Assembly (NCBI GenBank): GCA_022824265.1
Contig: JAJEAG010000051.1
Span: 12,818 to 76,817, forward strand
From: Candidatus Poribacteria bacterium
Lineage (GTDB): Bacteria > Poribacteria > WGA-4E > WGA-3G
DNA length: 64,000 nucleotides
Reading direction: 5' to 3'
The notes beneath the pieces were generated by a model. The model was given only the letters and a program-made list of their open reading frames with translations, was not told where the DNA came from and ran no database searches. Every line of letters begins with the position of its first letter. The first letter of the stretch is position 1. The translations under genes were made by a program, and so were the position numbers. Below, piece by piece: positions 4,602 through 42,208 of this stretch.

Positions 4602-4611
4602 TTTTATCCTT

Positions 4612-6867: not shown

Positions 6868-6922
6868 AATTTTTCGTTGCTCCTGTGCAACCTTGCTCAG
6901 ACAAGAATGTGCTTCTACAAGG

Positions 6923-8110
6923 TTATATTATTCCTTTTTCTTTCAACTGTTTTACTTCATCAGGTGAAATGTCCAACAATTTTGTCAATACTTCATACGT
7001 ATGTTCTCCAAGACTTGGTGCGGGAGCATCCACATTTCCAGGAGAATCAGAGAGTTTAATCGGTAATCCGGGCACTTCAACCGCACCTGTTATTTCGTGC
7101 ATCACTTTAGTAATCATATCCCGTGCTTGAACCTGTGGGTGATTCACTACCTTATCAATTGTGTTAATCGGACCACACGGTACTCCAATCTTTTCAAGGG
7201 ATTCTATCCATTTTTCCGTTTTTCGTTGACGCATGATCTCTGAGAGTATAGGAAACAAATCGCTGTGATTTTCAGTTCGGTCTGCGTTAGTTTTGAACCG
7301 TTGATCGTAGATAAGATGTTTATGGTTTACGTGTTCACAAAATTTTGCCCACAATGTATCGTTACCAATCGCAATAATAATGTGTCCATCCGCGGATTCA
7401 TATATTTCAAAAGGTGTGATTGCTGGATGCCGACTCCCAAGGGGTTGTGGGATTTTATCTGTTGCAAAATAACGGACAATTGCATTCTCCAATACTGCCA
7501 CAAGACTATCCAACATTGCTACATCCACTAACTGTCCTTTTCCTGTATTGTTTCGGTGGTGTAGTGCCGACATGATACCTATAGTGGTGAAGAGTGCTGC
7601 TGTAATATCGCTAATAGATGTGCCGACACGTACAGGAGATGCATCAGGTTCACCTGTAATACTGATAATACCACCCATGCCTTGAATTATCATGTCGTAA
7701 GCACCTTTCGTAGCATAGGGACCTGTCTGTCCAAAACCAGAACAGGAGGCATAAATCAGAGATGGACATTCAACTTTTAATGTCTCGTAATCCAAGCCAA
7801 GTTTTTCCATCGTTCCTGGTCGAAAATTTTCTACCAATATGTCGCTCTGTTTGACAAGTTGTTTGAATATCTGGATACCACGTTCAGTTTTTAGATTAAG
7901 TGTCACGCTCTGTTTGCCACGATTCACGCTCATAAAGTAGAGACTAAATCCGTTCTTGAACGGACCAAATCGTCTGGATTCATCCCCGGATTCAGGTTGT
8001 TCAATTTTGATGACTTCTGCACCGAGGTCACTTAGTATCATCGTTGCATAAGGTCCTGCCAGTACTCTTGTTAAATCCAATACCTTTATTCCTGTCAATG
8101 GTCCTGGCAT
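6923..8110 (-). CDS. CoA transferase family III (CaiB/BaiF family)
   Basis: N-terminal signature PGPLTGIKVLDLTRVLAGPYATMILSDLGAEVIKIE. Confidence 0.85.
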   Translation of the reverse strand: MPGPLTGIKVLDLTRVLAGPYATMILSDLGAEVIKIEQPESGDESRRFGPFKNGFSLYFMSVNRGKQSVTLNLKTERGIQIFKQLVKQSDILVENFRPGTMEKLGLDYETLKVECPSLIYASCSGFGQTGPYATKGAYDMIIQGMGGIISITGEPDASPVRVGTSISDITAALFTTIGIMSALHHRNNTGKGQLVDVAMLDSLVAVLENAIVRYFATDKIPQPLGSRHPAITPFEIYESADGHIIIAIGNDTLWAKFCEHVNHKHLIYDQRFKTNADRTENHSDLFPILSEIMRQRKTEKWIESLEKIGVPCGPINTIDKVVNHPQVQARDMITKVMHEITGAVEVPGLPIKLSDSPGNVDAPAPSLGEHTYEVLTKLLDISPDEVKQLKEKGII

Positions 8111-9484: not shown

Positions 9485-10393
9485 ATGGAGGACAATAAAG
9501 TGTTTAAATTTAACCGAACAATTTTCACATTCCTGCTTGTATTTGGTTTGACTGCTACGTTGATGGGTAATGAATGGGCTGACTACTACTTTCCAGACAA
9601 AATCGGAAGTTCATGGGTTTATGTAAATGAAGATGGAGACGAAATAACCCGTACTGCTGTTGAGGGAGAAGAGGTCGACGGAACGACGTATCGCGCCTTT
9701 ACTTATGAACCTGCAATAGATGATTGGGAAAAATATCAGTATGTTATTCATCCTTATCTGTATCAAGTCGGTGAAGAATGGATTACATTTCTTGTTGGCG
9801 ATGAAATAGAACAAGCAACCAAGTCTATCCTTGAGAAAAAACTTAATGAAACAATTGCACTCATGCAGGAACAGATTGCTGGACAACTACCTCCAGGAAT
9901 TACAATTGATTTTGATTTTGATGTTGACCCGCAAGCCCAAGATTTATTCTATCTATTTCCACTTCCGATTACCTATAATGAAGAATGGGTCGCAATGCAT
10001 TTGGACATAACAGTAGATATGACAATGGATATTCAAGGAGCACCTGCTGAACTTCCTGCAGAACTTCAAACAATTACTTCTACTACGAGTATTGAGGAAA
10101 CAGGGGTTATTTTAGGAACAGAAACTGTTGAGACTGAAGCCGGAACCTTTGATGACTGTTTAATAATTGAATATAAAACTAAAACAACAACGGATACAGA
10201 TTTACCCCCAGAATATAAACAAATGATACCAGAAACGCCAACCAACGAGGCAACGACAACGTTATGGTTAGCTCCTAATGTCGGTATTGTCAAATTCAGA
10301 AGTGAAAATGAGAATAGCGATGATGTAGCTACCTTGGAATTAACAAGTTATGAGATCATATCTGATGAATCTGATGAGGAAGAAAAAGAATAA
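9485..10393 (+). CDS. Secreted acidic hypothetical protein, paralog A. The true start is probably the GTG at 9503.
   Basis: Signal-peptide-like FKFNRTIFTFLLVFGLTATLMG, a GGAGG box 11 nt before the GTG at 9503, and an acidic C-terminal tail SDESDEEEKE. Confidence 0.6.
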   Translation: MEDNKVFKFNRTIFTFLLVFGLTATLMGNEWADYYFPDKIGSSWVYVNEDGDEITRTAVEGEEVDGTTYRAFTYEPAIDDWEKYQYVIHPYLYQVGEEWITFLVGDEIEQATKSILEKKLNETIALMQEQIAGQLPPGITIDFDFDVDPQAQDLFYLFPLPITYNEEWVAMHLDITVDMTMDIQGAPAELPAELQTITSTTSIEETGVILGTETVETEAGTFDDCLIIEYKTKTTTDTDLPPEYKQMIPETPTNEATTTLWLAPNVGIVKFRSENENSDDVATLELTSYEIISDESDEEEKE

Positions 10394-10448
10394 TTACTTG
10401 GTTTGCTGAATCTTCTGGATATAAATACAATCTTTTAAGGATAACTAC

Positions 10449-11426
10449 ATGTATAAAAGAACTTGTTTTGTTACTACAATCTTTCTTGTCCTATTTTTGT
10501 GTACAGCACTACGAGGGAATGAAACTTTACAACTTTATTTTCCAAGCACTGTAGGAAGTTTTTGGGTCTATGCAGATCAAGATGGGAATGAGTTCGTGCG
10601 TCATGCAATCGAAGGTGAAGAAATAGACGGTACGGTTTATAACGCATTCAGTTATAACCCTGAATTGGAAGATTGGGTTGATTTTAACCGTCATACAGTG
10701 CCATATCTGTATAATGTAAATGATGAGTGGATTAGTTTATTAGTCGGTGAGGAAATAGAAAACGCTGTTCATGCACGTCTCACCAAAGAATTTGAAACTT
10801 TCTCTGCATTGGTAAAGAATTTATTTGCGAATCTGATTCCGCCTGAAGAGAATGTTACCGTTGACTTTCTATATGATATAGAGGTTGATGCAGATGAACA
10901 TTTCAATTTTTTGCCAGCAGATGCATCTATTGATGATGAATGGGAAACCGTTGAGATAACTGCTACAGTCACCATGTCGTTTGAATTTCATGGTTTACCT
11001 GAGGAATTAGCAGCAGCAGCACCTCCGATACCCCCTGTCACAGCGACTTTTTCTATTCTTGAAACAGGGATAATCCTTGATACAGAAACAGTTGAGACTG
11101 CTGCTGGCACATTTGAAGATTGTTTAAAAATAGAATATCGTACTGAGACCGAACTCACAGCTGACCAACAAGAGGACCCTGAACCTGATAACCCACCCGG
11201 TGAAACAGTTACAACATTATGGTTAGCACCTAATATCGGTATTGTGAAGTATCATCAAGAAGCACAAAAGATGTTTCTTAATGTAATGTCTGACAAAGAA
11301 TTTGCTGAGGCATCAGTACCTGCGGAAGAAGCAGCCGAGATAACTGCTACAACAATCAAGTCATTTGAATTATCAAATTACGAGATTGCCTCTGATCCCG
11401 CACAAGAAGAGGATAGGATCGAATAA
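10449..11426 (+). CDS. Secreted acidic hypothetical protein, paralog B
   Basis: Signal peptide MYKRTCFVTTIFLVLFLCTALRG. Shares motifs YFP..GS.WVY, EGEE.DGT.Y.AF.Y.P, ETG.IL.TETVET.AGTF.DCL.IEY and TTLWLAPN.GIVK with paralog A. Confidence 0.6.
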   Translation: MYKRTCFVTTIFLVLFLCTALRGNETLQLYFPSTVGSFWVYADQDGNEFVRHAIEGEEIDGTVYNAFSYNPELEDWVDFNRHTVPYLYNVNDEWISLLVGEEIENAVHARLTKEFETFSALVKNLFANLIPPEENVTVDFLYDIEVDADEHFNFLPADASIDDEWETVEITATVTMSFEFHGLPEELAAAAPPIPPVTATFSILETGIILDTETVETAAGTFEDCLKIEYRTETELTADQQEDPEPDNPPGETVTTLWLAPNIGIVKYHQEAQKMFLNVMSDKEFAEASVPAEEAAEITATTIKSFELSNYEIASDPAQEEDRIE

Positions 11427-12504: not shown

Positions 12505-12575
12505 GAAGTGATGCGTTTGTAGTGGTGCAATTTATTACCAAGTCAACACCAAATGCGAGTATAGCGTTGATTCAC
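12505..12575. repeat. Divergent partial copy of the dispersed intergenic repeat core (see 21531..21790)
   Basis: GCGTTTGTAGTGGTGCAATTTATTACCAAGTCAACACCAAATGCG is roughly 75% identical to the core AACGCGTTTGTAGTCGCGCAATTCATTGCCAAATCAACGCCAAATGCGC. Confidence 0.45.
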
Positions 12576-12749: not shown

Positions 12750-13124
12750 TTGAAACCGCATCTTCGTGAACAATGGGTGATCCCCCCTTCCGAAGATGCT
12801 GCATTTGTGAATGCGATGGAGCAAGTGCCTGATCTTTATCAGAAACCTTTAGATACGGATGTTCCTGTTGTGAACATGGATGAACAATCTGTAACGCTAA
12901 GGGATCACCTGCGTGCTCCACGACCTGCTAAACCGGGTCAAGTAGAACGCGTGGATTCTGAATACAGACGCAATGGCACAGCATCAGTTTTTCTTTTCAC
13001 AGAGACCCTTTTTGAATTTCGGTATGTGTCTGTTCGGGAGCGTCGGACTGCGGTGGATTGGACAGAGGAGGTAAAGGTGCTATTGGAGGATGTGTATCCG
13101 AAGGCAAAGCGTGTGATTTTATAG
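12750..13124 (+). pseudogene. IS630-family transposase fragment (DDE_3 / ISAzo13-like type), central part
   Basis: LKPHLREQWVIPP and DSEYRRNGTASVF motifs; ends ...AKRVIL. The upstream region contains frameshifted continuation. Confidence 0.7.
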
Positions 13125-13168
13125 TGACATTTAGAATTATTGATACATTTTTTATTTTTTGTTAGAAT

Positions 13169-13429
13169 ATGTTTCCCATGGCATATTCACCCGATGGACG
13201 AAAACGCATTTTAGATTATGTTGCAGCTGGCGGGAAAAAATCTGAAGCATCCCGTCTGTTTTCCGTCGCACGCTCAACTATTGATAGGTGGTTAGCAGCT
13301 GAGAACCCGTTTGCAATTAGAAAAACAGGACCCAAAAAAATGAGAGTGATTGATGAGGAGGCAATCAGAAAACATGTTGCTGATTTCCCCGACTTAACAC
13401 AAAAAGAACGTGCTGCACATTATCATTAG
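13169..13429 (+). pseudogene. IS630/Tc1-type transposase N-terminal HTH fragment (classical ISY100-like type)
   Basis: AYSPDGRKRILDYVAAGGKKSEASRLFSVARSTIDRWL resembles ISY100-type N-termini. Truncated after about 86 aa. Confidence 0.6.
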
Positions 13430-13975
13430 CTAATCCGTGGACAGGTAAGGAAATGTCCGCTGTCCAAATAGAATTGCTGTAAATCGCGGAGATCTACTAT
13501 GTGCTGGTTATGGATAATTCTCGTCATCATAGTGAACATAGTCATAAACTGGACTCTGATAATTACAACGCCGGAGGGCTGGCTTATAGGAGTGATTGCT
13601 ATAATTGTCATAATTCTCATCATATCTTATAGAATAAATAGAAACTATTGACTATCTATTTCCGTGTCCTCCCCTTATCCTGGGGCACCACGCATTCGTT
13701 TCAGCGATATGCAGCACACGTTCTAAAAATAATACGTCGCCTTATACAACTTGCCCGATCAGCTGAGTCAATCTCCCGCAGTGCATCAACGAAAATCCTG
13801 TTTACCGCATTAACCTGATTGAAATCCGTGATATTGCCATACCTCGTAAAATGAAATTGGTACTATAGTTGACATTGAAATTAAAGAGACACATTTCTAT
13901 AGGAGTGATCTCCGAATCGCGACAAAACTCACTGATAGTCAGGGATCGGAGTTTCCTCCTACAACTCAAAATGTC

Positions 13976-14314
13976 TTGTTAATTCTAAAGTTCACTATAG
14001 TATGTGATAACCTAAATACACACACCCTTTCATCCTTGTATAAAGCATTTCCTGAGGCAGAAGCACAAAGATTGTGTGCTCGTTTGGAAATCGTGTATAC
14101 GCCTAAACACGGCAGTTGGTTGAATATTGCGGAGATAGAACTGAGTGTGCTAACACGACAGTGTTTGTGTCGGCGTATTCCCGATATAGAAACATTACAA
14201 AGAGAGACGCAGGCGTGGCAAAAACGACGAAATGCAGAGCAAAAGCAAGTAGATTGGCAATGGACCATGGCAGATGCGCGCATCAGATTAAAACATTTAT
14301 ACCCAAAAGATTAG
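13976..14314 (+). pseudogene. IS630-family transposase C-terminal DDE fragment, continuation of 12750..13124
   Basis: VCDNLNTHT and TPKHGSWLNIAEIELSVL motifs. Reading ...KRVIL then VCDNLNTH gives a contiguous transposase, interrupted here by an 850-bp insert. Confidence 0.7.
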
Positions 14315-17343: not shown

Positions 17344-18279
17344 ATGAAGCGGATAAAAATTCCCGGAGTTGACCAAGAAATATCACAACTAATTCTGGGA
17401 ACTATGATGTATTCACCTGACAGTTATGATCACAGCACGAAAATGTTAGATACATTCTTTGAAGCAGGTGGGAATACACTTGATACAGCACACATTTATG
17501 GCGGTGGTAATAGCGAAAGATTAATTGGTCAATGGATGCAGGAACGCGGAAATAGAGATGAGGTATTTCTGATAGATAAAGGTGGACACCCTTATGGGGG
17601 TATGCCGAACCGTGTTTCTCCAGAATACATAAAACAAGACCTTGATGAAAACCTGAGCCGTCTTAACACCGATTACATTGATCTATATATGCTCCATAGA
17701 GATGATCCTGAGATGTCGGTGAGTACCATCATTGACTATCTGAACGAGGAGATAGACGCAGGACGTATACGAACCATCGCCGCTTCAAATTGGCAACCCA
17801 ACCGCATCGTTGAGGCAAATACTTATGCATCAGATAATAACCTTAGCGGTTTCGTTGCATGTAGCAACAACATAAGTCTTGCTGTTCCAATGGAACCGAT
17901 GTGGGGAGGTTGTGTCAACGTTGATGATGCTGCCCGACGTTGGCATGTTGAAAGTCAATTCCCGCTTATGCCTTGGTCATCGCAAGCACGCGGCTTCTTC
18001 AGCGGTGCATTTACACCTGAGAACCGAGATAATGGCGATATGGTGCGAGTGTATTACAATGATGACAACTTTGAAAGACTCAAGCGCGCAAAACAATTAG
18101 GTAAAAAATACGGATTTTCCGCAATTCAGGTCTCCCTTGCTTATTGCGTCCACCTACCTTTTCCAATCTTTCCAATTGTCGGTCCCGCTAACTTGGAAGA
18201 GATGGCATCTTCACTTGGGGCATTAGAACTTGCGCTCTCCGATGACGAAATGGCATGGTTAAACCTTGAAATAGACTAA
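17344..18279 (+). CDS. Aldo/keto reductase
   Basis: LGTMMY...FFEAGGNTLDTAHIYGGGNSERLIG signature. Confidence 0.85.
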   Translation: MKRIKIPGVDQEISQLILGTMMYSPDSYDHSTKMLDTFFEAGGNTLDTAHIYGGGNSERLIGQWMQERGNRDEVFLIDKGGHPYGGMPNRVSPEYIKQDLDENLSRLNTDYIDLYMLHRDDPEMSVSTIIDYLNEEIDAGRIRTIAASNWQPNRIVEANTYASDNNLSGFVACSNNISLAVPMEPMWGGCVNVDDAARRWHVESQFPLMPWSSQARGFFSGAFTPENRDNGDMVRVYYNDDNFERLKRAKQLGKKYGFSAIQVSLAYCVHLPFPIFPIVGPANLEEMASSLGALELALSDDEMAWLNLEID

Positions 18280-18427
18280 CCAATTTGACACACAGTCTCA
18301 CGAATACTAAACACACATTTACTTTTATTCAGTGTGTCAATAAACAAATCTAATAACAAAGTGGACACGCGTTGTCTGTACAAAACGATAAGGAAAAAGG
18401 CGAACACTGCCTACTTAAAACTACATA

Positions 18428-19537
18428 ATGAAAACTCAAATTTTACACATAATATTCATACTACAATTTCTATTACTCCCATTCGGTATCCTACACAGTG
18501 CATTTGGACAGGAAAGTTGAGGCGCATGAAGCAATCCCGCAATCCCGCGTGGTGGGTCGGGTGAAGTCAGTTTGACTTCAGAAGGAAAAAGATTTCAAGC
18601 TTCTGTTAGCATGATGCGTTGGTATGACGCTCAAGGTGGACACTTTGAAGATGAAGGTGTCTTCATCGACCAAAATGGAAACCGAAGTATAGATACGGTT
18701 CCAGAACATAGACATCATGTCAATTTAAACATATACCGTATTGACGTTGCATTAAAATATCTTCTTGGTTCACAATGGATAGTGGAAGCAAACCTCCCGT
18801 ATGAATCCAAAGTACAAGAGGCAAGTGTAGAGAAGATTGAAGACATTGAATATACCCAGGAACAGTGGGATGCGATTATAGAAAATGGACGTATCCATCA
18901 TCGCAATGAAACTTATGCTGGTCTAACAGACTCAGAAGTTTTTCTTGGACATTATCGAGTTGGTGTCCTTGCAGAGAAAGATTATTTTGTGGGTCGTATC
19001 GGAACATCTATTCCATTTGGTAAAACTGAGGAAGACCCGTGGAAACTTGGAGAAAAGGGAGAGGAACATCTCCATATCCAATTTGGAACTGGCACTTTTA
19101 ACCCTATTTTTGTCTTACACTATAGCATACCTGTCTATAAAGGATTGGCAACACATTCCAGCCTACGGACAAAATTGCCGTTCTACGAGAACAGCAAAAC
19201 ATATCGTGGTTCGAATGAACTAACATATTCTTCTGGGTTGAATTATCGTCTTAATAAATGGATTTCCTTCAGAGCGGGTTACCTTGGGATATATCAATCC
19301 TTTGCACATTGGGATGGTGAAATAGACAAAAATACAGGACTCCTTTTCGGTATGGCATCTATGGGAACATCTATCTCAACACCGTTCAATGTACCGTTAT
19401 CAATATCGTTGCTGTTGCCCTTGCATCAAAAAACGCTTTATGATGATACTGACGCACTTGATGTCGTAAAATTCGAAGAAAGCGATGCATTTGAATTCGG
19501 TCCATTGGTCTCTGTTACGGTATTATATTCATTTTAG
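18428..19537 (+). pseudogene. Outer-membrane beta-barrel-like protein gene. The signal-peptide segment is separated from the mature part by two in-frame TGA codons.
   Basis: ATG at 18428 encodes MKTQILHIIFILQFLLLPFGILHSAFGQES. TGA at 18518-20 and 18527-29 lie in the same frame as the ORF from the TTG at 18572 (321 aa). That ORF has alternating hydrophobic strands and a C-terminal ...VTVLYSF. Confidence 0.45.
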
Positions 19538-19556
19538 TTCACTTTAGAAAGGCAAA

Positions 19557-19991
19557 ATGATAGCACACAGCAGAGGAGTTCAAATATTTCAGGGCATTAT
19601 TAGCGTAATTTTGGGTGGAGTCAGTATACTACTGGCTATATTGTTACGACAATCCGCATATTCAACGATGACACTGATTACTTTTTTCGTTGTCGGCATT
19701 ACCCTAATTTTCTCAGGGGACTACCTAATAAATCCGTTCGGTCTACCAGTAAATTCATTGAAGCAACAACTTTTTGGTGAAATGTGTTTGATTGCTTATG
19801 GTGTGTTTTATGTTAATATTGGTGTATCCCGTTTGTTACAACCTCTCGTTGTATATAACATATCACAATATCTACATCCAGTTTGGATTCGCAGAGGCAT
19901 AAGCACCGTTGGAATATTATTAATCATTGGTGGAATTTACGGTATTTATCAATTACTGCAAGTAGGTTTGGCTGAACCCCCACAAGAATAG
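19557..19991 (+). CDS. Small integral membrane protein, hypothetical
   Basis: Four hydrophobic helix-length segments; no recognised family. Confidence 0.4.
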   Translation: MIAHSRGVQIFQGIISVILGGVSILLAILLRQSAYSTMTLITFFVVGITLIFSGDYLINPFGLPVNSLKQQLFGEMCLIAYGVFYVNIGVSRLLQPLVVYNISQYLHPVWIRRGISTVGILLIIGGIYGIYQLLQVGLAEPPQE

Positions 19992-20025
19992 AGGATGTAT
20001 TGAGTTCCTTACTTCTGGCAATAAA

Positions 20026-20331
20026 TCAACGAGCAATAATCACCGCATAACGTAAAGGAATCTTACCGATATTCTTGATTCCATGTAAGACTTGGCAATC
20101 CACGTGCACAGCTTCGTTATCGCTAATCTGGTGCGTCTGTTCCCCGAATAGCACTTCACCCTTACCAGAAAAAACATAGAATATTTCCTGTCCATCATGA
20201 GTGTGAGGTGGATGTGCGCGTTGTCCCGGCCCAACTTCCGATATATGTAGACTTAGCTGTCCTCTATCTGCTCCAGTTTCAAATACAAACCGATCAATGC
20301 CTTTAATATCTGTCCTTACTTTTTCTGCCAT
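20026..20331 (-). CDS. Cupin-domain protein
   Basis: HPPHTHDGQEIFYVFSGKGE cupin_2 metal-binding motif. Confidence 0.7.
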   Translation of the reverse strand: MAEKVRTDIKGIDRFVFETGADRGQLSLHISEVGPGQRAHPPHTHDGQEIFYVFSGKGEVLFGEQTHQISDNEAVHVDCQVLHGIKNIGKIPLRYAVIIAR

Positions 20332-20544
20332 TTCATACCTCCTAATCTATATACCCATCATTCTACCACACAACTATATGCCTTTCAAGTAGAATACAAG
20401 GGTATTCTAAGTAATATAAGTTAGTCAAGGTTCGCTTGCAACATACGACAGGACACACTTATGTCGGAGCGATTCACACAAGTTGTCTTCAGCAACTACG
20501 TATGGTATACTCTAAATAAATAGAACGTATCTCATAAACCACTT

Positions 20545-20567
20545 GTAGGGGCGGAGTCTCCCGCCCG
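20545..20567. repeat. Palindromic REP-like element GTAGGGGCGGAGTCTCCCGCCCG
   Basis: Member of the GTAGGGGCGAGG.TCTCC.CGCCCG family seen again at 21723, 22097, 26547 and 31209. Confidence 0.6.
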
Positions 20568-21530: not shown

Positions 21531-21790
21531 ACAAGCAGTAGGCGCGCTTTGTAAGCGCGCTGGACTTCAATAGTAATACCATTTCTAAATAATAACTTCT
21601 CATTAACAAAAAACGCGTTTGTAGTCGCGCAATTCATTGCCAAATCAACGCCAAATGCGCCAAATCAACGGTATGAATGCCATTGGCATGCCCCGTATGG
21701 CATTTGTCGCCTCGGACATTCCGTAGGGGCGAGGTCTCCCCGCCCGTATTCTCACATACAGTCCCGTAGGTCGGGTAGAGCGAAGCGCAA
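21531..21790 (+). repeat. Composite dispersed intergenic repeat, copy R1: GC hairpin, ~85-bp core, and GTAGGGGCGAGG palindrome module
   Basis: GGCGCGCTTTGTAAGCGCGC + TGGACTTCAATAGTAA + ATTTCTAAATAATAACTT...GCCAAATGCGC + GTAGGGGCGAGGTCTCCCCGCCCGTATTCTCACATACAGTCCCGTAGGTCGGG. Nearly identical to 26384..26610 apart from two indels. Confidence 0.7.
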
Positions 21791-22096
21791 CCCATGTCTA
21801 TCTGAACCATAGAACGTCATGCACAAAAATCAGCGCAATCTATCAGAATCGCAGCATAATGCAATTAGGTTTCAGACGTTACAAAGAGACATTGATATAC
21901 CAAAATCTTTCAGTGTATTCACCGTCTTCAGTGCTTTCCGTGATTCAGACAATTAGCACTATCAAATACCTTTCACACGAAGGCATAATCCTTAAGTTGA
22001 GACCTATGGGTTTCGTCCCTCAACCCGACCTACAGGACATTATGACAATTTGTCAATTAGAAATGGTATAACTTGGGTACTTCTCACAAATCCCTT

Positions 22097-22119
22097 GTAG
22101 GGACGGGGTCTCTCCGCCC
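22097..22119. repeat. REP-like palindrome GTAGGGACGGGGTCTCTCCGCCC, preceded by the TTCTCACAAATCCC module
   Basis: Same family as 21723..21746. An inverted half-copy (CCCGACCTACAGGAC) sits at about 22024. Confidence 0.5.
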
Positions 22120-26018: not shown

Positions 26019-26383
26019 CACTTGAAATATGATATAATAGAAGTTATACCAATTCTAATAATTATTATCCCATTACTGGATTCAACCATTGTTGATTGGC
26101 AATCTTTCTTCTGTAGGAGCAACCTACTATCCTGAAAATCTCGGTTTAGTCAATACTGAAAACTGAAAACTAAACCAAAAAACTGAAACAGACATCAAAC
26201 ATATTGGATATATATTGTTATCAAAATCAATAACACTACACGACCAAACGACCATCAAGTATAATATAACCCAACATCCAACACAGAACTTGCAAAATCG
26301 AGAAAACCAATGACAACATATCAAAACACAAAACCGAAAAAAAACAACTAAATGGAGATTATGGTAAAATTCATAATTATATC

Positions 26384-26610
26384 ATTTCTAAATAATAACT
26401 TTTCATCAACAAAAAACGCGTTCGTAGTCGCGCAATTCATTGCCAAATCAACGCCAAATGCGCTTATGGCATTTGTCGCCTCGGACATTTGGATTTATTA
26501 AGTCTCAAAATGTGGTTTTATTTATTAGAATTGGTATTACATTCTCGTAGGGGCGAGATTTCCTCGCCCGCATTCTCACATACAGTCCTGTAGGTCAGAA
26601 CGAGTGAAGT
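26384..26610 (+). repeat. Composite dispersed intergenic repeat, copy R2 (direct copy of R1)
   Basis: ATTTCTAAATAATAACTTTTCATCAACAAAAAACGCGTTCGTAGTCGCGCAATTCATTGCCAAATCAACGCCAAATGCGC ... GTAGGGGCGAGATTTCCTCGCCCGCATTCTCACATACAGTCCTGTAGGTC. Confidence 0.7.
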
Positions 26611-26904
26611 GACCTCAGACAACAAGCGATTCAGACAAGCAAGAATCATTAAATTGATGCCTATGGTGTGTTTTCAAATTGACACTTATATCTTAAATAA
26701 AACAGAACTAAAATGGAGCAAAATAAAAAACGAAAATCGCGTCACATTCCTTGTCCTGATTGGATTCATCACGTCATTGTGACGTAACAAAAGGTCACAA
26801 TTTCATTAGGCAAAGTTATAATTCATGCGGTAAGACATTCATACACGCCGAATACCTTAATGAAGATTGATTTATTCTTTCGGTAATATGAATGTCCCCA
26901 AAAC

Positions 26905-27065
26905 CTGTAAGCGTGCTGGACTTCAATAGTAAATTATCAAATTTATTTCTTAAGTTTCATAATGGTATTCATACCGTTGATTTGGGAAATGCCGTAAGCG
27001 CATTTGGCATTGATTCAAGGTAGATCCTATAACTATTCCACGAAAATGGCACTTTATTTGTTAGA
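26905..27065 (-). repeat. Inverted mosaic copy (R3) of the composite repeat
   Basis: Begins with the forward head GTAAGCGTGCTGGACTTCAATAGTAA, then continues as the reverse complement of the core (CCGTTGATTTGG = revcomp of CCAAATCAACGG; GCATTTGGCATTGATT = revcomp of AATCAATGCCAAATGC). Confidence 0.6.
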
Positions 27066-27079
27066 AATGGTATTATATT

Positions 27080-28123
27080 ATGACACCACTACTTTCTGTC
27101 AATTCCATAACAAAACAGTTCGCATCAACTCCCATTGTAACGGATGTCAGTTTTGATGTATATCCAGGAGAAATTTTCGCACTATTGGGAGCAAGCGGGT
27201 GTGGCAAAACAACTACTTTACGCTTGATTGCAGGCTTTGAAAAAGCAGACTCAGGCACTATTTTAATGGGAGATCGTGTTCTTGAAGACCAAAATATACA
27301 TATTCCATCCGAATTACGAGGAATTGGGTTTGTTTTTCAAGATTACGCACTTTTTCCTGACAAGAACGTGATACATAACGTTGCATTCGGACTTAGTCGC
27401 AAGTTGTCAAAAAATGTGCGGTACACGACTGCCATGGATTCCCTTGAGCGAGTCGGCATTGCACACTTGCATGAGCGAATGCCACATCATCTCTCTGGTG
27501 GAGAACAGCAACGAGTCGCATTAGCTCGTTCTCTGGCAACGCAACCGAAGCTGCTGCTATTAGATGAACCTTTTTCAAGCCTTGATGCGGGTCTTCGTCA
27601 AGAAACAAGAGAAGAGGTACGTGAATTATTAAAAGCAGCAGAAATCACTGTGGTACTTGTAACACATGACCAAGAAGAAGCATTGAGTTTTGCTGAACGT
27701 GTGGTAGTCATGAACAGCGGTACTATTGAACAGATCGGCACTCCGGAAGAGGTATACCAACACCCAAAAACTGTATATGTCGCCAGATTTCTTGGGACAA
27801 CGAATATCATTGAAACAGACATCAAAAACGGAGCTGCAGAAACACCATTTGGAACGTTGCCAGTAGATTCTCCAAACACAACACAAGCACTCCTTTCAAT
27901 TCGTCCAGAACATATTCGCATAGAAAAACATATCCCTGATACTGGTGATAATAAATTTGGTCGTATTACTGCCCGTGAATTCAAAGGACACGATTTAACA
28001 TACCGCGTTGAAGTTGAAGGAAAACCTTACTTTATCCAAACCGACTACCAACAGCACTTCAAAGTCGGTGATGCGGTAACTTTGAAACCAATTGAAGCGG
28101 TTGTTATTGAGGATAAATCGTGA
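27080..28123 (+). CDS. ABC transporter ATP-binding protein with C-terminal TOBE-type domain (PotA/FbpC/CysA/MalK-like importer ATPase)
   Basis: Walker [10 protein letters not shown], signature [13 protein letters not shown], Walker B LLLLDEP, and a ~110-aa C-terminal extension. Confidence 0.85.
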
Positions 28124-31015: not shown

Positions 31016-31153
31016 AATTGCTCCTTACATCAATATAGCAGAAATTGTAATACATCATTGTGGAATTGTCAATTGGAAAACAGATCCAACATAGAGCAGA
31101 GCCATTCAGTTTTCCAAATCCTATTATCTTTAATATTAAGCCTTCCTTTGTAG

Positions 31154-31174
31154 AAGTACTCTCCGAATCGCGAC
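31154..31174. repeat. Short repeat ..CTCCGAATCGCGAC.., possibly a solo IS-end remnant
   Basis: The same 14-mer, with similar flanks (CTTATCCT nearby), occurs at 13903..13923 immediately upstream of the IS630 C-terminal fragment. Confidence 0.35.
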
Positions 31175-31208: not shown

Positions 31209-31232
31209 GTAGGGGCGAGGTCTCCTCGCCCG
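31209..31232. repeat. REP-like palindrome GTAGGGGCGAGGTCTCCTCGCCCG
   Basis: Perfect inverted repeat GGGCGAGG-TCT-CCTCGCCC. Family member; followed by a TATTTACCCCACACC...CTGTAGGAGCGAC module. Confidence 0.6.
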
Positions 31233-31325
31233 TATTTACCCCACACCCTCTTCTGTAGGAGCGACTTTCAAGTCGCGACTTTACGACATATTTCTACGAT
31301 TTAACGAAAACTGAATGGCTCTGAA

Positions 31326-31359
31326 CATAGAGGCATAGAGGCATAGAGGACATAGAGGA
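31326..31359. repeat. Tandem direct repeat (CATAGAGG-like, about 4 units)
   Basis: CATAGAGGCATAGAGGCATAGAGGACATAGAGGA, about 70 nt upstream of the Gfo/Idh gene at 31430. Confidence 0.6.
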
Positions 31360-31429
31360 ACAAGACTTGACAATCGGTTAGAAATCTGTAAAATAGATAG
31401 ACAACAATTCACCGTCAGAGGAGGACAAT

Positions 31430-36160: not shown

Positions 36161-39100
36161 ATGAGAATACTGTGTAATTACATAATAATCAGTTGTTTGT
36201 TGATATTTATTTCTGTCGGTATTGTTGACGCACAACAGAATCTGGCACAACAAGCTTATGCAATCATGGAGCAATCCTGCCTTATATGCCACGGGGAGAA
36301 CGGCTCATATACAGAGGCACTTATCATTGAATACACAGCACTCATTGATGACGGAAAAGTCGTTCCTAGTGATCCAGACGGTTCTGTGTTCTATCAAAGA
36401 CTCATCGAAACGAATATTGCTAAACGTATGCCGCTCGGACAGCCTGCGCTTGATCCCGCTGCGATTGAAACGATACGTCAATGGATTGCAGCAGGCGCAC
36501 CCGATTGGGATGCCGTGTCAAGACCAGAGACTAACTTCATTACAACTGATACTATGTTTGAAACGATTGAGAACCACGTCAATTCTCTTGCTCCACGTGA
36601 TAAATTGTTTGCACGTTATTTTTCGTTGACACATCTCTATAACGCAGGTGAGACAACTGAAGCACTTCAAGCATATCGGCGTGCCCTTTCGAAACTGATC
36701 AATAGTCTCTCTTGGGGTCGTGAAGTTGTTAAACCAATTCCTATTGATACCGAAGAAACCATTTACTACATTGATCTCCGAGACTATGAATGGGATGTGA
36801 GAAACGACGCATGGACACAGGTTGAGCAGGCATATCCCTACAAAATGATGTACGATGCACCAACACAGATACATCTCCGCGAAAAACTAACGACTCTACA
36901 GCAGGAGATGAACTGTGAAGTTCCGTTTGTTCATGTGGATTGGTTCATCGCAAATGCTTCCTTACCACCCCTCTATCACGATATTTTGCAGCTGCCACTG
37001 ACAGACCGAGAACTGGAAGAAAAACTTGGGATATCAGTTAAAGAAAACATACAGAACGCACCAAGAAAACGTGTCTGGCGTGCAGGTTTCAGTGATTCTG
37101 GAGTCTCAAATCACAACAGAGTTGTAGAACGTCATAATTTTCAACACGGTGCATACTGGAAAAGTTATGACTTCGCGGGAAGTGCCGATTCACAGAATAT
37201 ATTTACCCATCCGCTTAATTTTACACATGACGGTGGCGAAATTATCTTCAACCTACCGAACGGATTACAAGCGTATCTTTTGGTAGATAGTAACGGTAAC
37301 CGGCTTGATGTAGCACCCACAGATATCGTTTCTAATCCTGCTGCAAGTGATCCTGCCGTCCGCAACGGTCTTTCGTGTATCGGTTGCCACACAGAAGGGA
37401 TGAAGACGTTTGAAGACGAGGTGCGTGCTGTAGTTGAACAGGCAAATAATCCGCTTTTTAACAAGGCACGAGCATTAGAACTCTATGTGGAACAAGAGAT
37501 AATGGATGAGTTTGTTGAAGAGGATACGCTACGTTATAGGAACGCTCTTGAGAAAGCGGGTGGTATATTTGGGGGTATTGAGCCGATTCAACGTTTCCAT
37601 GAGGTGTTTCAAGGTGCGCTTGATGCTGCACATGCTGCAGCTGCTGTTGGGTTAGAGACCGATACATTCCTTGAGAGAATAAGCAAAAGTCCAACTTTAC
37701 AAAACTTATTAGGGGCATTGGTGTTAGATAACGGTGCCATCAAACGAGACGCATGGACATCGGCTTTCCACGATGTGATTTCTGCGCTGAATTCTCCTGA
37801 TACCGTACTGCCACCCATAGAACAACCAGAACGTATACCAGGTGCTTCAGTGAATATACCCGATCTGAACCTTCGCGCTGTAATTGAAGAAGCACTCGGT
37901 AAAGCGATGGGTGAGGTTATTACTGTTGAGGATATGGAAAGTTTGACGAGATTTGTTGGGAATGACAAAGGCATTCAAGATTTGACAGGTGTTGAATTTG
38001 CAAAAAATTTAACCTACTTTGAAATTCGACGTAATATGGTCAACGATCTCACTCCAATTGCAAGTTTAACAAATCTGAGTGGATTACGTGTGCAAGGAAA
38101 CAATATATCAGATATATCTCCAATAATTGACCTTAAAAGAATAGGAACACTTGAAATATATGATAATCAAATTTCTGACATTTCCCCAATTGGGGAACTA
38201 ACGAACTTATTTTGGTTGTCTATGACTAATAATCCAATCAATGATATCTCACCACTTGCTAATTTGAAAAAGCTGAACGGAATTCGATTGAATTTCGAAG
38301 ATTCTACTGATTTTTCTCCTATAGCAGAATTAACAAACTTAGAAAGGTTTTTCTTATGGGGTGCTGGTAAACCTATACCTGATTTGACACCCTTAGCTAA
38401 CTTACAAAAATTAAAAATCTTAGACCTACGCGGCGAAGGAGTACCTGATTTGTCTCCTATTGCACAATTAGACAACTTGGGAAGATTTGAATTTTGGGGA
38501 TCGGGTGAAAACCTACCTGATCTGTTACCTTTAGCAGAATCAAATAATTTGAAGGAATTATGGGTCATAAATTGCGGAATCACAGATCTAACTTTTATAG
38601 AGAACTTCACAAGTTTGGAAAGGTTAAATCTTGAACGGAATAATATAACAGATGTGTCACCGTTAGCAAAATTGACAAACTTAAAATGGCTAAAACTTAC
38701 AAACAATCCAATATCTGACTTTTCACCTTTAGCAGAATTCGCACAAACTACTAACGTCCTCACAGGAGATGTTGCAATTAATGATCCCAACCTACGTGCG
38801 GCAATTGCAGTAGCACTTGGTAAAGGCTACAGTAGGATTGTTTCAATTACATTGGAAGAGTTGGCAACTTTGACTCACCTTGATGCTAAAAATGATAATG
38901 AGTCACAGAATGAAAATATCAGCAATTTAACGGGTTTGGAGTTTGCAATAAATCTAAGTTATTTGAATATTGCTGGCAATTCAGTATCAGATTTAACACC
39001 AATCGAAGGTTTAACAGAACTTAGTTTCTTAGATGCTCAAGATAACTTAATATCGGATACAATACCACTTAAAGGATTAACTAATCTACGAGGTTTAATT

Positions 39101-42100
39101 CTTAATCGTAACTTGATTAATGATTTATCACCTCTCATGGGATTAACACAACTTCAAGATTTACGCGTTGCTAATAACCTGATTTCTGATTTTTCTCCAC
39201 TTGCTAAACTCACTACATTGAAAAAGTTAACGATTTCAGGCAGCTCGTTTTCTGACTTATCCATACTAACGGGATTAATTAACCTTGAAGGGTTATGGAT
39301 ATCCCACAGTTCGCTAACCGACCTGTCACCGCTTGTGGAATTAATGAACCTGGAGGGTATGTCCGTTTGGGATTCACCTGTAGCAGATCTATCCCCATTG
39401 GTAGGACTACCAAAACTGAAATGGTTGGATTTTGGTCGCACTCCGATATCAGGTCTTTCACCATTAGCGAATATAGTAACCTTGCGAAAACTGACATTTT
39501 ACGACTGTGGAATAGAAGATCTTTCAGTTCTTAAAGGTTTAACAGAGTTGGTACATATTAAAATGCCACACAACGCGATTTCGGATGTTTCACCGTTAGC
39601 GGGGTTAATACATCTAACGTATTTGGAGTTAGGTGACAATGCAATATCGGATATATCTGCATTGGAACAATTAACCAATTTAGAAACTCTATGGATCAAT
39701 AATAACAACATATCAGACGTATCACCTTTGTCAGAATTGACTAACTTACAAGAACTAAAACTTCGTAATAACCCGATAACAGATTTTTCACCTTTAGTTA
39801 ATCTCTTTGACAATACATATATACTGTATGATCTTATTATTCCAGATGTGAACCTACGTGCAGCGATTGCAGAAGCACTCGGAAAAGAAGATGCTACTGC
39901 CTCAATTACATTTGTAGAAATGGCATCTTTGACAACCTTATCAGCGAGCAATAAGGATATTAAAGATTTAACAGGTATTGAACACGCGATAAATCTGGAA
40001 GAGATATGGGTCGGAAAAAACCCGTTGTTTGATCTTTCACCACTCGCAGGATTGACAAACCTTGTCGGTATAAGTGCTTGGGAAACCCCTATATCCGATT
40101 TGTCGTCCTTGAAAGATTTAACGAAATTGAGATGGTTAGATTTTGGTCGTACCGATGTACATGACTTGTCTTCTTTGAAAGATTTAACGAACTTGAAAAA
40201 ACTGAAGTTCTATGGTTGTGGTGTCATAGAAGATCTTTCACCACTGGAAGGCTTAACAGCGTTGACAGAAATGAACTTTGGAGGCAATCCTATATCCGAC
40301 TTATCTCCGCTGGCAGTGTTAGTCAACTTGGAACATTTAGATTTTCACGGGGATAACATTGCTGACCTCTCACCCTTGGCTGGGTTGAACAAACTGAGAC
40401 ATCTTGATCTTCGTGCTAATTCATTATCTGATGTATCAGCTTTGGCTGGATTAACCAGTTTAACAAACCTTTTACTTGGCGATAACAAAATCTCTGACGT
40501 ATCACCCTTAGCAGGATTATTCAACTTAGAGTATCTATTCCTTAGAGAGAATTTAATAACCGACATCTCTCCATTGAATAATTTGCACAAAGATATATAT
40601 ATTGATTGGCTAAGAAACCCTGGTGCCCCCAAAGAGGGACCGAAATTAGAAGGTCCTTGGTTATGTGTATTGATTCCAGGAAAACGACTCGATAGCGACA
40701 CTGATTTATTAGCAGATACGAGTGATGGGTCCGTAACAGAACATCAGATTGCGACAAAAGGCGCACTGGAAGGAAAAGCTGTAGGAGATAAAAAGTGGAC
40801 ATCACATAGAATATCTCCCACTGGTAGAAATAATTTTAAAGATGTCTTGAGAACTTTCGATGTCCCTCCAGATCAGGATACAAGCGATAATGTTGTTTAT
40901 GCTTGCATAATAATAGGTTCACAGCAAGAACAGAACACAAAATTGCTATTGGGCAGTGAAGGACATCACAAGATTTGGTTAAATGGTGATTTGATACATC
41001 AGGATGTTGGTCTCGATGCCCATGATTCGCGTGATTATGGTATGTTCCTCCCTGTTACCTTGAAACAAGGCGCGAATATTTTATTAGTTGCAATTGATAG
41101 TGGACATTGGATTACAGGACATTTCGGTTTTGAAGAAGGGACTGAGTACACGGTGGTTCCACCTGGTGTTGGTTTCTCATTCACTGCAACAGAGATCTCC
41201 CTCCTTGCAGGTGATACGTTCACACTTAACCTTAACGCTGAAAACATCACTGATTTGGCAGGATGGCAAACAGATATTGCGTTTGACCCGAATGTGCTTG
41301 AAGCAGTTGAAGTCACCGAAGGCGATTTTCTGAAGTCAGAAGGTGGAGATACCTTCTTCCAAGGCGGGACGATTGATAACGCTACAGGGAATATTTCAAC
41401 TATATTTTCGACACGGATATCTGAAAATGGTAGTAGCGGTACAGGTGCATTGCTGTCGGTAATATTCAAGGCAAAAGCAGCAGGTGAAACTCAGGTGACA
41501 TTAGAAAACTTTGAGTTTGTCTCTATCACCGATGACATTATTCCTACTGTCCATCCTAATATTACTATCACTGTGGGAGAATATCCTGCATGGGATGTGA
41601 ATCAGGATGGACGCGTGAGTATTCTGGATCTTATTCTCGTAGCAAGGGATTTCGGATCAGGTGCAACTGCTAACTTACGCACAGATGTAAATCGAGATGG
41701 CGTAATCAATATCCAAGACCTTATCATTGTCGCACAACACATGGGTGAAACGACAGATTCCGCAGCACCTAATGTATATGTAATGGATAGCAAAGAACTA
41801 ACCCCAGCAATAGTACAAGAATGGATTCAACTGGCACAAATAGAAGATGACGGATCGCTCGCTTTCCAACAAGGCATAGAGAACCTTCAACGTCTATTAG
41901 CATCACTGCTTCCTGAAAAGACTGCACTTCTCGCAAACTATCCGAATCCCTTCAATCCTGAGACATGGATACCGTACCAACTCGCGAAACCTGCAGAGGT
42001 TACTTTGACGATTTATACTATAAACGGATCGGTTATTCGGATATTGGCGTTAGGACATCAGGGTGCTGGAATCTATCAGAGTCGTAGTCGTGCTGCGTAT

Positions 42101-42208
42101 TGGGATGGCAGGAATGAGGTTGGAGAATTCGTAGCAAGTGGAGTGTATTTCTATACACTCACTGCAGGTGATTTTATAGCAACCCGACGGATGTTAATTC
42201 TGAAGTAA
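36161..42208 (+). CDS. Giant secreted multidomain protein (2015 aa). Domains: signal peptide; planctomycete-type cytochrome c (PSCyt1-like) heme module with 2 CxxCH; three duplicated blocks of internalin-like leucine-rich repeats; a beta-sandwich region; cohesin-like domain; dockerin; T9SS-type C-terminal sorting domain.
   Basis: Heme module: SCLICHGENG ... VVPSDPDGSVFYQRLIE ... MPLGQPALDPAAIETIRQWIAAGAP, and a second CIGCH. LRRs: about 45 repeats of 22 aa (LTNLxxLxLxxNxISDISPLAxL), each block opening with NLRAAIxxALGK. Cohesin-like: GDTFTLNLNAENITDLAGWQTDIAFDPNVLEAVEV...ALLSVIFKAKAAGETQVTL. Dockerin: DVNQDGRVSILDLILVAR ... DVNRDGVINIQDLIIVAQH. C-terminal: ANYPNPFNPETWIPYQL...VTLTIYTINGSVIR...WDGRNEVGEFVASGVYFYTL...RRMLILK. 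Confidence 0.85.
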   Translation: MRILCNYIIISCLLIFISVGIVDAQQNLAQQAYAIMEQSCLICHGENGSYTEALIIEYTALIDDGKVVPSDPDGSVFYQRLIETNIAKRMPLGQPALDPAAIETIRQWIAAGAPDWDAVSRPETNFITTDTMFETIENHVNSLAPRDKLFARYFSLTHLYNAGETTEALQAYRRALSKLINSLSWGREVVKPIPIDTEETIYYIDLRDYEWDVRNDAWTQVEQAYPYKMMYDAPTQIHLREKLTTLQQEMNCEVPFVHVDWFIANASLPPLYHDILQLPLTDRELEEKLGISVKENIQNAPRKRVWRAGFSDSGVSNHNRVVERHNFQHGAYWKSYDFAGSADSQNIFTHPLNFTHDGGEIIFNLPNGLQAYLLVDSNGNRLDVAPTDIVSNPAASDPAVRNGLSCIGCHTEGMKTFEDEVRAVVEQANNPLFNKARALELYVEQEIMDEFVEEDTLRYRNALEKAGGIFGGIEPIQRFHEVFQGALDAAHAAAAVGLETDTFLERISKSPTLQNLLGALVLDNGAIKRDAWTSAFHDVISALNSPDTVLPPIEQPERIPGASVNIPDLNLRAVIEEALGKAMGEVITVEDMESLTRFVGNDKGIQDLTGVEFAKNLTYFEIRRNMVNDLTPIASLTNLSGLRVQGNNISDISPIIDLKRIGTLEIYDNQISDISPIGELTNLFWLSMTNNPINDISPLANLKKLNGIRLNFEDSTDFSPIAELTNLERFFLWGAGKPIPDLTPLANLQKLKILDLRGEGVPDLSPIAQLDNLGRFEFWGSGENLPDLLPLAESNNLKELWVINCGITDLTFIENFTSLERLNLERNNITDVSPLAKLTNLKWLKLTNNPISDFSPLAEFAQTTNVLTGDVAINDPNLRAAIAVALGKGYSRIVSITLEELATLTHLDAKNDNESQNENISNLTGLEFAINLSYLNIAGNSVSDLTPIEGLTELSFLDAQDNLISDTIPLKGLTNLRGLILNRNLINDLSPLMGLTQLQDLRVANNLISDFSPLAKLTTLKKLTISGSSFSDLSILTGLINLEGLWISHSSLTDLSPLVELMNLEGMSVWDSPVADLSPLVGLPKLKWLDFGRTPISGLSPLANIVTLRKLTFYDCGIEDLSVLKGLTELVHIKMPHNAISDVSPLAGLIHLTYLELGDNAISDISALEQLTNLETLWINNNNISDVSPLSELTNLQELKLRNNPITDFSPLVNLFDNTYILYDLIIPDVNLRAAIAEALGKEDATASITFVEMASLTTLSASNKDIKDLTGIEHAINLEEIWVGKNPLFDLSPLAGLTNLVGISAWETPISDLSSLKDLTKLRWLDFGRTDVHDLSSLKDLTNLKKLKFYGCGVIEDLSPLEGLTALTEMNFGGNPISDLSPLAVLVNLEHLDFHGDNIADLSPLAGLNKLRHLDLRANSLSDVSALAGLTSLTNLLLGDNKISDVSPLAGLFNLEYLFLRENLITDISPLNNLHKDIYIDWLRNPGAPKEGPKLEGPWLCVLIPGKRLDSDTDLLADTSDGSVTEHQIATKGALEGKAVGDKKWTSHRISPTGRNNFKDVLRTFDVPPDQDTSDNVVYACIIIGSQQEQNTKLLLGSEGHHKIWLNGDLIHQDVGLDAHDSRDYGMFLPVTLKQGANILLVAIDSGHWITGHFGFEEGTEYTVVPPGVGFSFTATEISLLAGDTFTLNLNAENITDLAGWQTDIAFDPNVLEAVEVTEGDFLKSEGGDTFFQGGTIDNATGNISTIFSTRISENGSSGTGALLSVIFKAKAAGETQVTLENFEFVSITDDIIPTVHPNITITVGEYPAWDVNQDGRVSILDLILVARDFGSGATANLRTDVNRDGVINIQDLIIVAQHMGETTDSAAPNVYVMDSKELTPAIVQEWIQLAQIEDDGSLAFQQGIENLQRLLASLLPEKTALLANYPNPFNPETWIPYQLAKPAEVTLTIYTINGSVIRILALGHQGAGIYQSRSRAAYWDGRNEVGEFVASGVYFYTLTAGDFIATRRMLILK

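Follow-up and report, generated by a model that had tools for sequence, protein, structure and literature searches.

We report that a 64,000-nt stretch of DNA from a Candidatus Poribacteria bacterium (contig JAJEAG010000051.1; hereafter the window, whose positions serve as coordinates throughout) carries a 23-nt palindromic element at 31209-31231 and four relatives of it. [quoted passage not shown] The cognate enzyme would be a RAYT of subclass 2.4, which in related Poribacteria is flanked by REPs and bears them within its own gene. Loci in other genomes are designated by L-numbers and RAYT homologues by P-numbers.

GTAG-tagged hairpins in the window

An earlier note on this DNA had listed REP-like copies at 20545, 21723, 22097, 26547 and 31209. 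All of them were recovered by a permissive GTAG-anchored alignment-score scan of the window, which found exactly these five copies, all on the + strand and all intergenic (Table 1); 20 shuffles scanned in the same way yielded 3 hits altogether. When up to 3 mismatches are allowed, the 23-mer occurs 3 times in the window (0.00 expected), as does a 12-mer with up to 1 mismatch (0.04 expected), and a chance origin of the repeats is excluded. The window belongs to a 125-kb scaffold of ENA assembly ERZ23491076, of which 81.6 kb were covered. With a sixth copy that lies on the same scaffold outside the window, all six source-scaffold copies are intergenic, and their density is 6 in 81.6 kb, or ~1 per 14 kb. 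A CRISPR array, a chance match and IS630 ends were tried as other identities of the element and were rejected on spacing, statistics and sequence.

As ssDNA, each copy is predicted to fold into a short G+C-rich hairpin with a foot of three G-C pairs, which leaves GTAG unpaired on the 5' side. The earlier note had pointed to the flanking tetranucleotides as informative, and GTAG indeed abuts the stem 5' in 5/5 window copies and in the sixth scaffold copy; it is also the commonest hairpin tag in related loci, as described below. Across the window copies, whose type can also be written GTAGGGGCG[AG]GG, stems measure 6-8 bp and loops 3-6 nt, and the folding z-scores are individually significant in only two. 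The perfect 8-bp inverted repeat around a TCT centre that had been ascribed to the family as a whole is found in the 31209 copy, which folds as ssDNA at -10.4 kcal/mol (z -5.4); the other four copies are imperfect or decayed. With compensation half complete, the stem of the 21723 copy is intermediate between those of the GGGCGAGG and GGGCGGGG types.

The neighbours of the 31209 copy on its two sides are the divergent genes argJ and Gfo/Idh/MocA, at distances of 193 and 198 nt, and the copy is flanked by divergent promoter-like sites at 31072(-) and 31367(+). A promoter-like site (20483-20511) precedes the 20545 copy, and the LpxL-like start codon follows it. Copies upstream of both the lpxL-like gene and the Gfo/Idh gene, as well as inside a composite repeat, are what the earlier note had described. 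The 21723 and 26547 copies are downstream of + strand genes and on the sense strand. Along the 81.6 kb of scaffold, GC skew runs with the orientation of the genes nearby and does not assign the REPs to the leading or lagging strand.

These placements bear on whether the elements are structural signals that were selected by the host and have no mobility, that is, RNA stem-loops that stabilise or terminate transcripts, or DNA sites of nucleoid or topology proteins (IHF or gyrase, for example). Such functions have been proposed for some of the REPs and bacterial interspersed mosaic elements (BIMEs) of E. coli. The two copies on the sense strand downstream of genes would suit such signals, and the 20545 copy could sit in a 5' untranslated region. 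However, a terminator scan of the window called no REP copy terminator-like, no T-tract follows any copy, the stop codons are 210-584 nt away, and the 31209 copy, standing between divergent promoter-like sites, may not be transcribed. Furthermore, a purely host function leaves unexplained both the copies in and around RAYT genes and the co-variation of REP variant with lineage. We consider it unlikely that the elements are host signals alone; as an added role, such functions, which are reported for REPs in the available text of PMC3733652 and PMC3479197, are compatible with REPs of the RAYT type. An Rfam search of the window gave no family that reached its gathering score, and a tRNA scan of the window found none.

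Further GTAG families and a composite repeat

The window holds at least four further families of GTAG hairpins, which coexist with the 23-nt element (Table 1). The intergenic DNA, 14% of the window, is rich in G+C-rich hairpins headed by GTAG: hairpins of -10 kcal/mol or below occur at 9/71 intergenic GTAG sites versus 2/335 coding sites (Fisher p = 4e-6), and the seven most stable GTAG-headed hairpins of the window are all intergenic.

Several of these units form a composite repeat. This is a head-to-tail cluster in which a GTAGTCGCGCAATTCATT module is followed by the GGGCGAGG REP and then, 20 nt on, by a GTAGGTCGG-type unit, and it is common to 21560-21800, 26363-26625 and the Poribacteria locus L061. 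In L061 the GTAGGTCGG-type unit is intact (GTAG-GTCGGAG-13 nt-CTCCGAC). The 21723 and 26547 REPs are each the first REP unit in a composite; the module TTCTCACA...CCCGTAGG, which had been noted after several copies, follows these two and no others.

We also observed a unit of ~25-40 nt, AATGGCATTCATACCGTTGATTTGG, at 21660-21684 and 26961-26985 (inverted) of the window and at 4829-4870 of the Poribacteria locus L045. In L045 it appears to be inserted midway into a GTAGGCGCGC REP, and its occurrences in the window are in the long intergenic regions. This unit may be another small mobile or recombined module.

Distribution of the element across genomes

One genome per GTDB species was scanned with the pattern GTAGGGGCGAGNTNTCCNCGCCC (20 specified bases), and the core was found in at least 119 stretches; our own chance estimate for this pattern in 596 Gb is about one hit. 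Among the matches listed, 40 loci belong to Poribacteria, 20 to Chloroflexi, 19 to Cyanobacteria (including Candidatus Obscuribacterales) and 5 to Zixibacteria, and the remaining listed matches fall into about 20 phylum-level groups. Isolates (Phormidium FACHB-1136 and ESFC-1) and a closed Limnothrix genome are among the cyanobacterial matches. In the listed loci, only 23/129 cores (18%) lie in open reading frames (ORFs) of at least 150 aa, versus an ORF coverage of 77% (p = 4e-45). The repeat is neither limited to a few loci nor free of positional bias, the outcome that the earlier note had named as speaking against its proposal.

We examined the 5' tag of perfect G+C-rich hairpins in the listed loci with the ascertained core excluded, and found GTAG at 73/706 flank slots, the next being AAAA with 15. 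The stems vary by compensatory changes (GGGCGAGG, GGGCGGGG, GGGTTGGG, GGGTCAGG, GGGACGGGG), and GTAG and the GGG/CCC foot remain constant.

These data also bear on the possibility that the copies are operators of a dimeric transcription factor that co-regulates the lpxL-like, S41 peptidase, ABC ATPase and Gfo/Idh genes, as their palindromic sequence and the presence of two copies in divergent promoter regions could suggest. Stems related by compensation, such as GGGCGAGG, GGGCGGGG, GGGTTGGG and GGGTCAGG, conserve structure and not sequence, however, and a 3-nt loop between 8-bp arms is atypical. In addition, the same 23-mer occurs in about 20 phylum-level groups, beside unrelated genes and inside RAYT ORFs. 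We regard operators as an exceedingly improbable explanation.

With respect to arrangement, 26/129 cores in the listed loci have an inverted partner within 110 nt. Many non-Poribacteria copies are followed 2-40 nt later by the inverted relative GGGCGGGG(A/T)AACCCCGCCCCTAC, forming a REPIN or head-head dimer, and head-to-tail neighbours are common in Poribacteria. REPIN-like doublets of the core are present in L045 (e.g. 1447-1509), L046, L029 and L056.

The closest relatives of the window among the fetched loci are metagenome-assembled genomes (MAGs) of Candidatus Poribacteria. L045 is syntenic with 17344-20332 of the window at 72-78% nucleotide identity, and L061 has several intergenic modules in common with the window at 80-89% identity. 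Upstream of an aldo-keto reductase gene, L045 carries an inverted REP dimer and the window a different hairpin, so that the placement is non-orthologous; in the comparison of empty and filled sites with L045, the intergenic DNA was too diverged for an insertion point to be defined. The IMG/VR viral contigs yielded only 5 stretches, plasmid carriage of RAYT was indicated by only 3 tblastn hits, and there is no evidence for phage or plasmid vectors.

A RAYT transposase linked to the element in relatives

RAYT-like ORFs were found in the loci fetched with the pattern by phmmer with E. coli RayT as the query, a sequence that is consistent with the 4ER8 alignment in its HUH and Tyr segments. In 5 of the at least 119 loci, the REP core lies in frame inside a RAYT-like ORF (L033 and L093 of Poribacteria, L046 of Zixibacteria, L079 of a Bacteroidetes MAG and L095 of Nitrospirae), and in L062 (Planktothrix) a REP lies 12 nt from such an ORF. 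The proteins have the layout ...YFVT.C...MPNH.HGI-[variable insert]-LG.IVAYFKYQSTK...WQRNY.(D/E)HIIR...YI.NNP..W, in which the variable insert between the HUH and Tyr motifs consists of translations of the REP (VGARSPRP, RRGEVSSP and GEETSPLQ).

The best NCBIfam match of these proteins is NF047646, REP_Tyr_transpos (E 1e-18 to 1e-20), and they also match Pfam Y1_Tnp. When a 19-sequence profile was compared with the PDB, the best match was 4ER8, the E. coli TnpA_REP (E 3.7e-5). Invariant positions of the alignment are N80-H81-x-H83, W145-Q146, an Arg, the catalytic Y166 and N170-P171, with an Asn four residues after the Tyr; NHLHG, with L at the hydrophobic position of NH[IFV]H, is also seen in the RAYT alignment. 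A regular expression requiring Y..NP[VLI] and an upstream HUH gave no match over all ORFs, because subclass 2.4 has YIQNNPM/K-W. Its motifs place the associated enzyme in RAYT subclass 2.4 (Bertels group 4).

IS200/IS605 elements have the same HUH/Y1 chemistry and hairpin substrates, and the RAYT proteins also match IS200 weakly (NF033573, E 0.003). The copies might be subterminal hairpins or remnants of such elements, or palindrome-associated, PATE-like miniature inverted-repeat transposable elements; their mobilisation would then be due to a classical TnpA, alone or together with TnpB, instead of a domesticated RAYT. We consider this very improbable. The window and the loci have no tnpA/tnpB and no paired ends bounding cargo, the window has no Y1/TnpB ORF, and the copies are isolated 23-nt units with a GTAG tag. 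Moreover, the associated proteins carry the RAYT-type YIxNNP motif and score 72 bits with REP_Tyr_transpos versus 18 bits with IS200.

In the relatives, REP and RAYT are physically linked and vary together by lineage. A full REPtron is present at the Poribacteria locus L033: inverted dimers of the GTAGGGG type flank the RAYT gene on either side, and the gene itself contains two copies identical to GTAGGGGCGAGGTCTCCTCGCCC. The RAYT is flanked by or contains the REP in the Poribacteria loci L033, L093, L134, L135 and L137. In seven further RAYT loci (L093, L130, L132 and L134-L137), the REP variant inside the gene is the same as that around it, and this variant differs by lineage, being of the GGGCGAGG type in L093, L134, L135 and L137 and of the GGGAC[AG]GGG type in L130, L132 and L136. 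A second, canonical RAYT (NF047646, 118 bits) was observed in the L033 MAG at 6750-7600 (-), 6 kb away; a different REP of its own, GGTAGGTGCGATATCCTTATCGCACC, flanks it on either side, and hence several RAYT/REP systems coexist in this one genome.

A homologue search with the L033 RAYT protein gave 6281 sequences at E <= 1e-10, of which the best 120 (P0001-P0120) were analyzed. The exact REP-core peptide is encoded in 58 of these 120 (73 occurrences of VGAR[SF]PRP and 16 of RGEVSSP), and the core is translated 89 times in the sense and 0 times in the antisense orientation, though the antisense frames are without stop codons. The inserts measure 17-164 aa and are made of VGARSPRP and RRGEVSSP units, with up to nine units in tandem (P0002, 318 aa). 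Because the REPs are in frame and always sense in the 120 homologues, the RAYT gene may be a self-contained REPtron, horizontal transfer of which would explain why the same 23-mer occurs in about 20 phylum-level groups.

Proposed mechanism and points that weigh against it

The GTAG tag, the extragenic bias and the REP-RAYT linkage in relatives support the earlier suggestion that this REP-like unit is a RAYT target. The RAYT gene that this suggestion pointed to is present in Poribacteria relatives and was not found in the window or in the 81.6 kb of source scaffold covered; therefore, the REP is linked to a RAYT of the source organism by homology only. The source genome would encode such a RAYT. 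Going by what is described for TnpA_REP and IS200/IS605 enzymes (PMC3479197, PMC8266576 and PMC6006769), the enzyme would bind the folded hairpin on ssDNA and would read GTAG through conserved W-Q/R residues. It would cleave and rejoin ssDNA nearby and in this way seed new copies over time. The copies, of which 4/5 in the window are imperfect, would then decay by mutation and would come to cluster head-to-tail with REPs of other families.

Besides the lack of a RAYT gene in the window and in these 81.6 kb, several points weigh against this interpretation. Only six copies are present in the 81.6 kb of source scaffold, and the four window copies with imperfect stems may have ceased to be substrates. 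An inverted partner from the same family is lacking for all five window copies, and hence there is no REPIN in the window. Two copies lie in divergent promoter regions, whereas REPs are usually concentrated downstream of genes. The subclass-2.4 RAYT proteins score 65-72 bits, which is below the curated NCBIfam cutoff of 80. Finally, the literature gives no in vivo demonstration of RAYT-driven REP transposition, not even for E. coli, and the available text of PMC8266576 calls the mechanisms of REP dissemination poorly understood.

RAYT genes in CRISPR-Cas and other operons

In 7/8 contexts, the exception being L033, a type I-B-like CRISPR-Cas operon was observed to hold the Poribacteria RAYT, with cas5 on one side of it and cas3 on the other; the gene order is cas6-cas8b-cas7-cas5-RAYT-cas3-cas4 (Table 1). 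These contexts come from five ENA assemblies, the MAG SB0670_bin_33 and two closed chromosomes, which represent different samples and diverged genomes. The spacer between cas5 and the RAYT gene is often filled by REP arrays in one orientation (L136 4219-5978 and L130 2083-3000), and the L136 array comprises 35 tandem copies of GTAGGGAC[AG]GGG..CCC[TC]GTCC with a period of ~47 nt. Both arrays are CRISPR-like in layout, but their spacers are short and repetitive.

Similar placements were seen outside Poribacteria. In the Planktothrix MAG locus L062, the RAYT homologue (2478-3002(-)) adjoins a Cas3-like helicase (3955-6192(-)), and in the Zixibacteria chromosome L046 the RAYT (6560-7156(-)) lies inside the nuo operon, between nuoD (49-kDa subunit) and nuoE/nuoF. 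REP-bearing RAYTs tend to sit co-oriented inside operons. A literature search found no paper on RAYTs in cas operons.

If the 31209 REP belongs to a REP/RAYT lineage that is a conserved resident of the cas operon in Poribacteria, the RAYT with its genome-wide hairpin sites might be functionally coupled to CRISPR-Cas. Possible forms of such a coupling are co-expression with Cascade/Cas3, or ssDNA processing that feeds or regulates interference or adaptation. We regard the coupling as improbable; the placement may be an inherited insertion in a tolerant spot.

Table 1. REP copies, other GTAG-headed units and RAYT genes. Positions are those of the window unless a locus number is given.
Feature	Position	Strand	Description
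REP copy 1	20545-20566	+	GTAGGGGCGGAGTCTCCCGCCC; one base shorter; 6-bp stem; fold z -2.0; 43 nt before the start codon of the LpxL-like acyltransferase gene (Pfam Lip_A_acyltrans)
REP copy 2	21723-21745	+	GTAGGGGCGAGGTCTCCCCGCCC; single A/C stem mismatch; fold z -2.3
REP copy 3	22097-22119	+	GTAGGGACGGGGTCTCTCCGCCC; degenerate; fold z -1.5; repeat-comparison identity 76%
REP copy 4	26547-26569	+	GTAGGGGCGAGATTTCCTCGCCC; 7-bp stem; 5-nt loop ATTTC; fold z -3.3
REP copy 5	31209-31231	+	GTAGGGGCGAGGTCTCCTCGCCC; GTAG, then perfect 8-bp stem GGGCGAGG/CCTCGCCC; TCT loop
Sixth REP copy, same scaffold, outside the window	L123:3532		GTAGGGGCGGGGTCTCCCCGCCC; fully compensated stem variant; intergenic
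Different GTAG-tagged REP family GTAGGCGCGCTTTGTAAGCGCGC	21538-21560	+	8-bp stem
GTAGGCGCGC family, second copy	58896-58920	-	10-bp stem; same family as 21538 (GTAGGCGCGCTTTGTAAGCGCGC also at 58920(-))
Third GTAG family GTAGGAGCGACTTTCAAGTCGCGAC	31255-31279	+	23 nt downstream of the 31209 REP
Units related to GTAGGAGCGACTTTCAAGTCGCGAC	31150-31174 and 13900-13923		
GTAGGT[CT]GG... units	9341, 21766, 22033(-), 35966, 49162(-)		some double-footed (GTAG...CTAC)
GTAG-headed hairpin GTAGCACAAACTTTCCAGTTTGTG	17099		
Second GTAG-tagged composite unit, GTAGGTCGG type	21766-21793	+	large loop; 20 nt after the 21723 REP
Second GTAG-tagged unit GTAGGTCAGA...	26590-26620	+	decayed; 20 nt after the 26547 REP
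Inverted GTAGGTCGGG unit	22008-22033	-	pairs with 21755-21783 across 232 nt; 83% complementary
Module GCGTTTGTAGTCGCGCAATTCATTGCC... preceding the REP in the composite	21615-21659	+	further copies at 26418-26462 and 12513-12557
RAYT in cas operon	L130 3001-3564		
RAYT in cas operon	L132 2559-3080		
RAYT in cas operon	L134 2501-3187		
RAYT in cas operon	L135 2501-3106		
RAYT in cas operon	L136 6001-6600		
RAYT in cas operon	L137 6001-6729		
RAYT in cas operon	L093 78-704	-	

Other features of the window

The window has several further features of note. A G-poor, A/C-rich intergenic stretch of ~175 nt at 26178-26352 is 80% identical to 3459-3639 of the Poribacteria MAG locus L061 and has no Rfam match; it might represent a small RNA or a conserved leader. 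A promoter-like module, TTGACA...TTAGAAATGGTATAAT, occurs in intergenic DNA in both orientations (22039-22073, 27045-27080, 26043-26074 and 31365-31392). Four tandem (C)ATAGAGG(A/C) units at 31325-31360 directly precede the promoter-like site of the Gfo/Idh/MocA gene, TTGACA-16-TAAAAT (31367-31394). At 27060-27079, just 3 nt separate a -10-like TATTAT from the ATG that follows it, the start of the ABC ATPase gene, and for this reason the mRNA of that gene could be leaderless.

With regard to coding and formerly coding DNA, degraded fragments of an IS630-family transposase are spread over three short ORFs at 12750-14314 (HTH_Tnp_IS630, with weak scores for DDE_3) and resemble an insertion sequence that has decayed and has no relation to the REPs. 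A 2015-aa ORF at 36161-42208 contains many periodic repeats of 66 nt (22 codons) and looks leucine-rich-repeat-like. Tandem paralogue pairs are present in 1208-3506 and 9485-11426; two Gfo/Idh/MocA paralogues have ~75% nucleotide identity at a spacing of 1210 nt, and two DUF3108-like paralogues are ~74% identical in segments.

Comparison with known systems and significance

Di Nocera et al. (2013; PMC3733652) described a super-family of GTAG-tagged REPs with stems of 6-13 bp and loops of 2-3 nt, which occur as singletons, as head-head, tail-tail and head-tail dimers, and in clusters in Proteobacteria, Cyanobacteria, Chloroflexi and the PVC group. The elements described here resemble this super-family, and the REP/BIME sequences of E. 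coli and Pseudomonas, in their terminal GTAG ahead of a stem and loop of such lengths, their extragenic position, the presence of several families per genome and the occurrence of units singly, as dimers and in clusters. They differ from that description in that the window copies are singletons or stand head-to-tail with other families, whereas head-to-tail dimers were reported to be rare in most genomes, and in that Poribacteria are not listed among its phyla. The stem GGGCGAGG was not found in the text or supplements of PMC3733652, and a literature search for the literal REP sequence returned only unrelated eukaryotic primer and promoter papers.

The enzyme side was treated by Quentin et al. 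(2018; PMC6006769). According to the available text, subclass 2.4 of TnpA_REP corresponds to Bertels group 4, has the motifs NH[IFV]H, WQ and YIxNNP, and goes with REPs that are either "canonical long", with a foot of three G-C pairs, or "double foot". [quoted passage not shown] (2017; PMC5581495). Measured against what these sources give, our elements agree with the REPs of subclass 2.4 in the 5' GTAG, the three-G-C foot and the double foot of some units, in the motifs of the enzyme and in the spread over many phyla. Poribacteria, however, are not among the hosts named in the available text (Cyanobacteria, Bacteroidetes, Chlorobia, Caldilineae and "various phyla"), and neither the head-to-tail tandem arrays that REPs often form in Poribacteria nor a RAYT inside a type I CRISPR-Cas operon is mentioned there.

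Two other systems are close in form. REPINs (Bertels and Rainey, 2011; PMC3116915) are matched in other genomes, where the core forms inverted doublets with outward GTAG...CTAC and a short spacer, but not in the window, where the five copies are on one strand and have no inverted partner of their family. Like the hairpins of IS200/IS605 elements (IS608, ISDra2), the copies would offer a Y1/HUH enzyme an ssDNA hairpin with a short guide or tag sequence 5' of it; unlike them, they enclose no transposase cargo between paired ends, and the associated protein is of the RAYT type.

The element type and its REP-bearing transposase were already known, and what is new is the host lineage, Poribacteria, together with the exact stem sequence. 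REPs of several GTAG families explain the dense mosaic of short intergenic palindromes in this sponge-symbiont-type genome. Annotation gains in that REP-derived peptides and spurious ORFs become recognisable, and assembly and binning gain in that REP clusters break contigs. The host range of subclass-2.4 RAYT systems is extended to Poribacteria, which opens no new mechanism; of all aspects, only the conserved placement of the RAYT in a CRISPR-Cas operon might point to something new.

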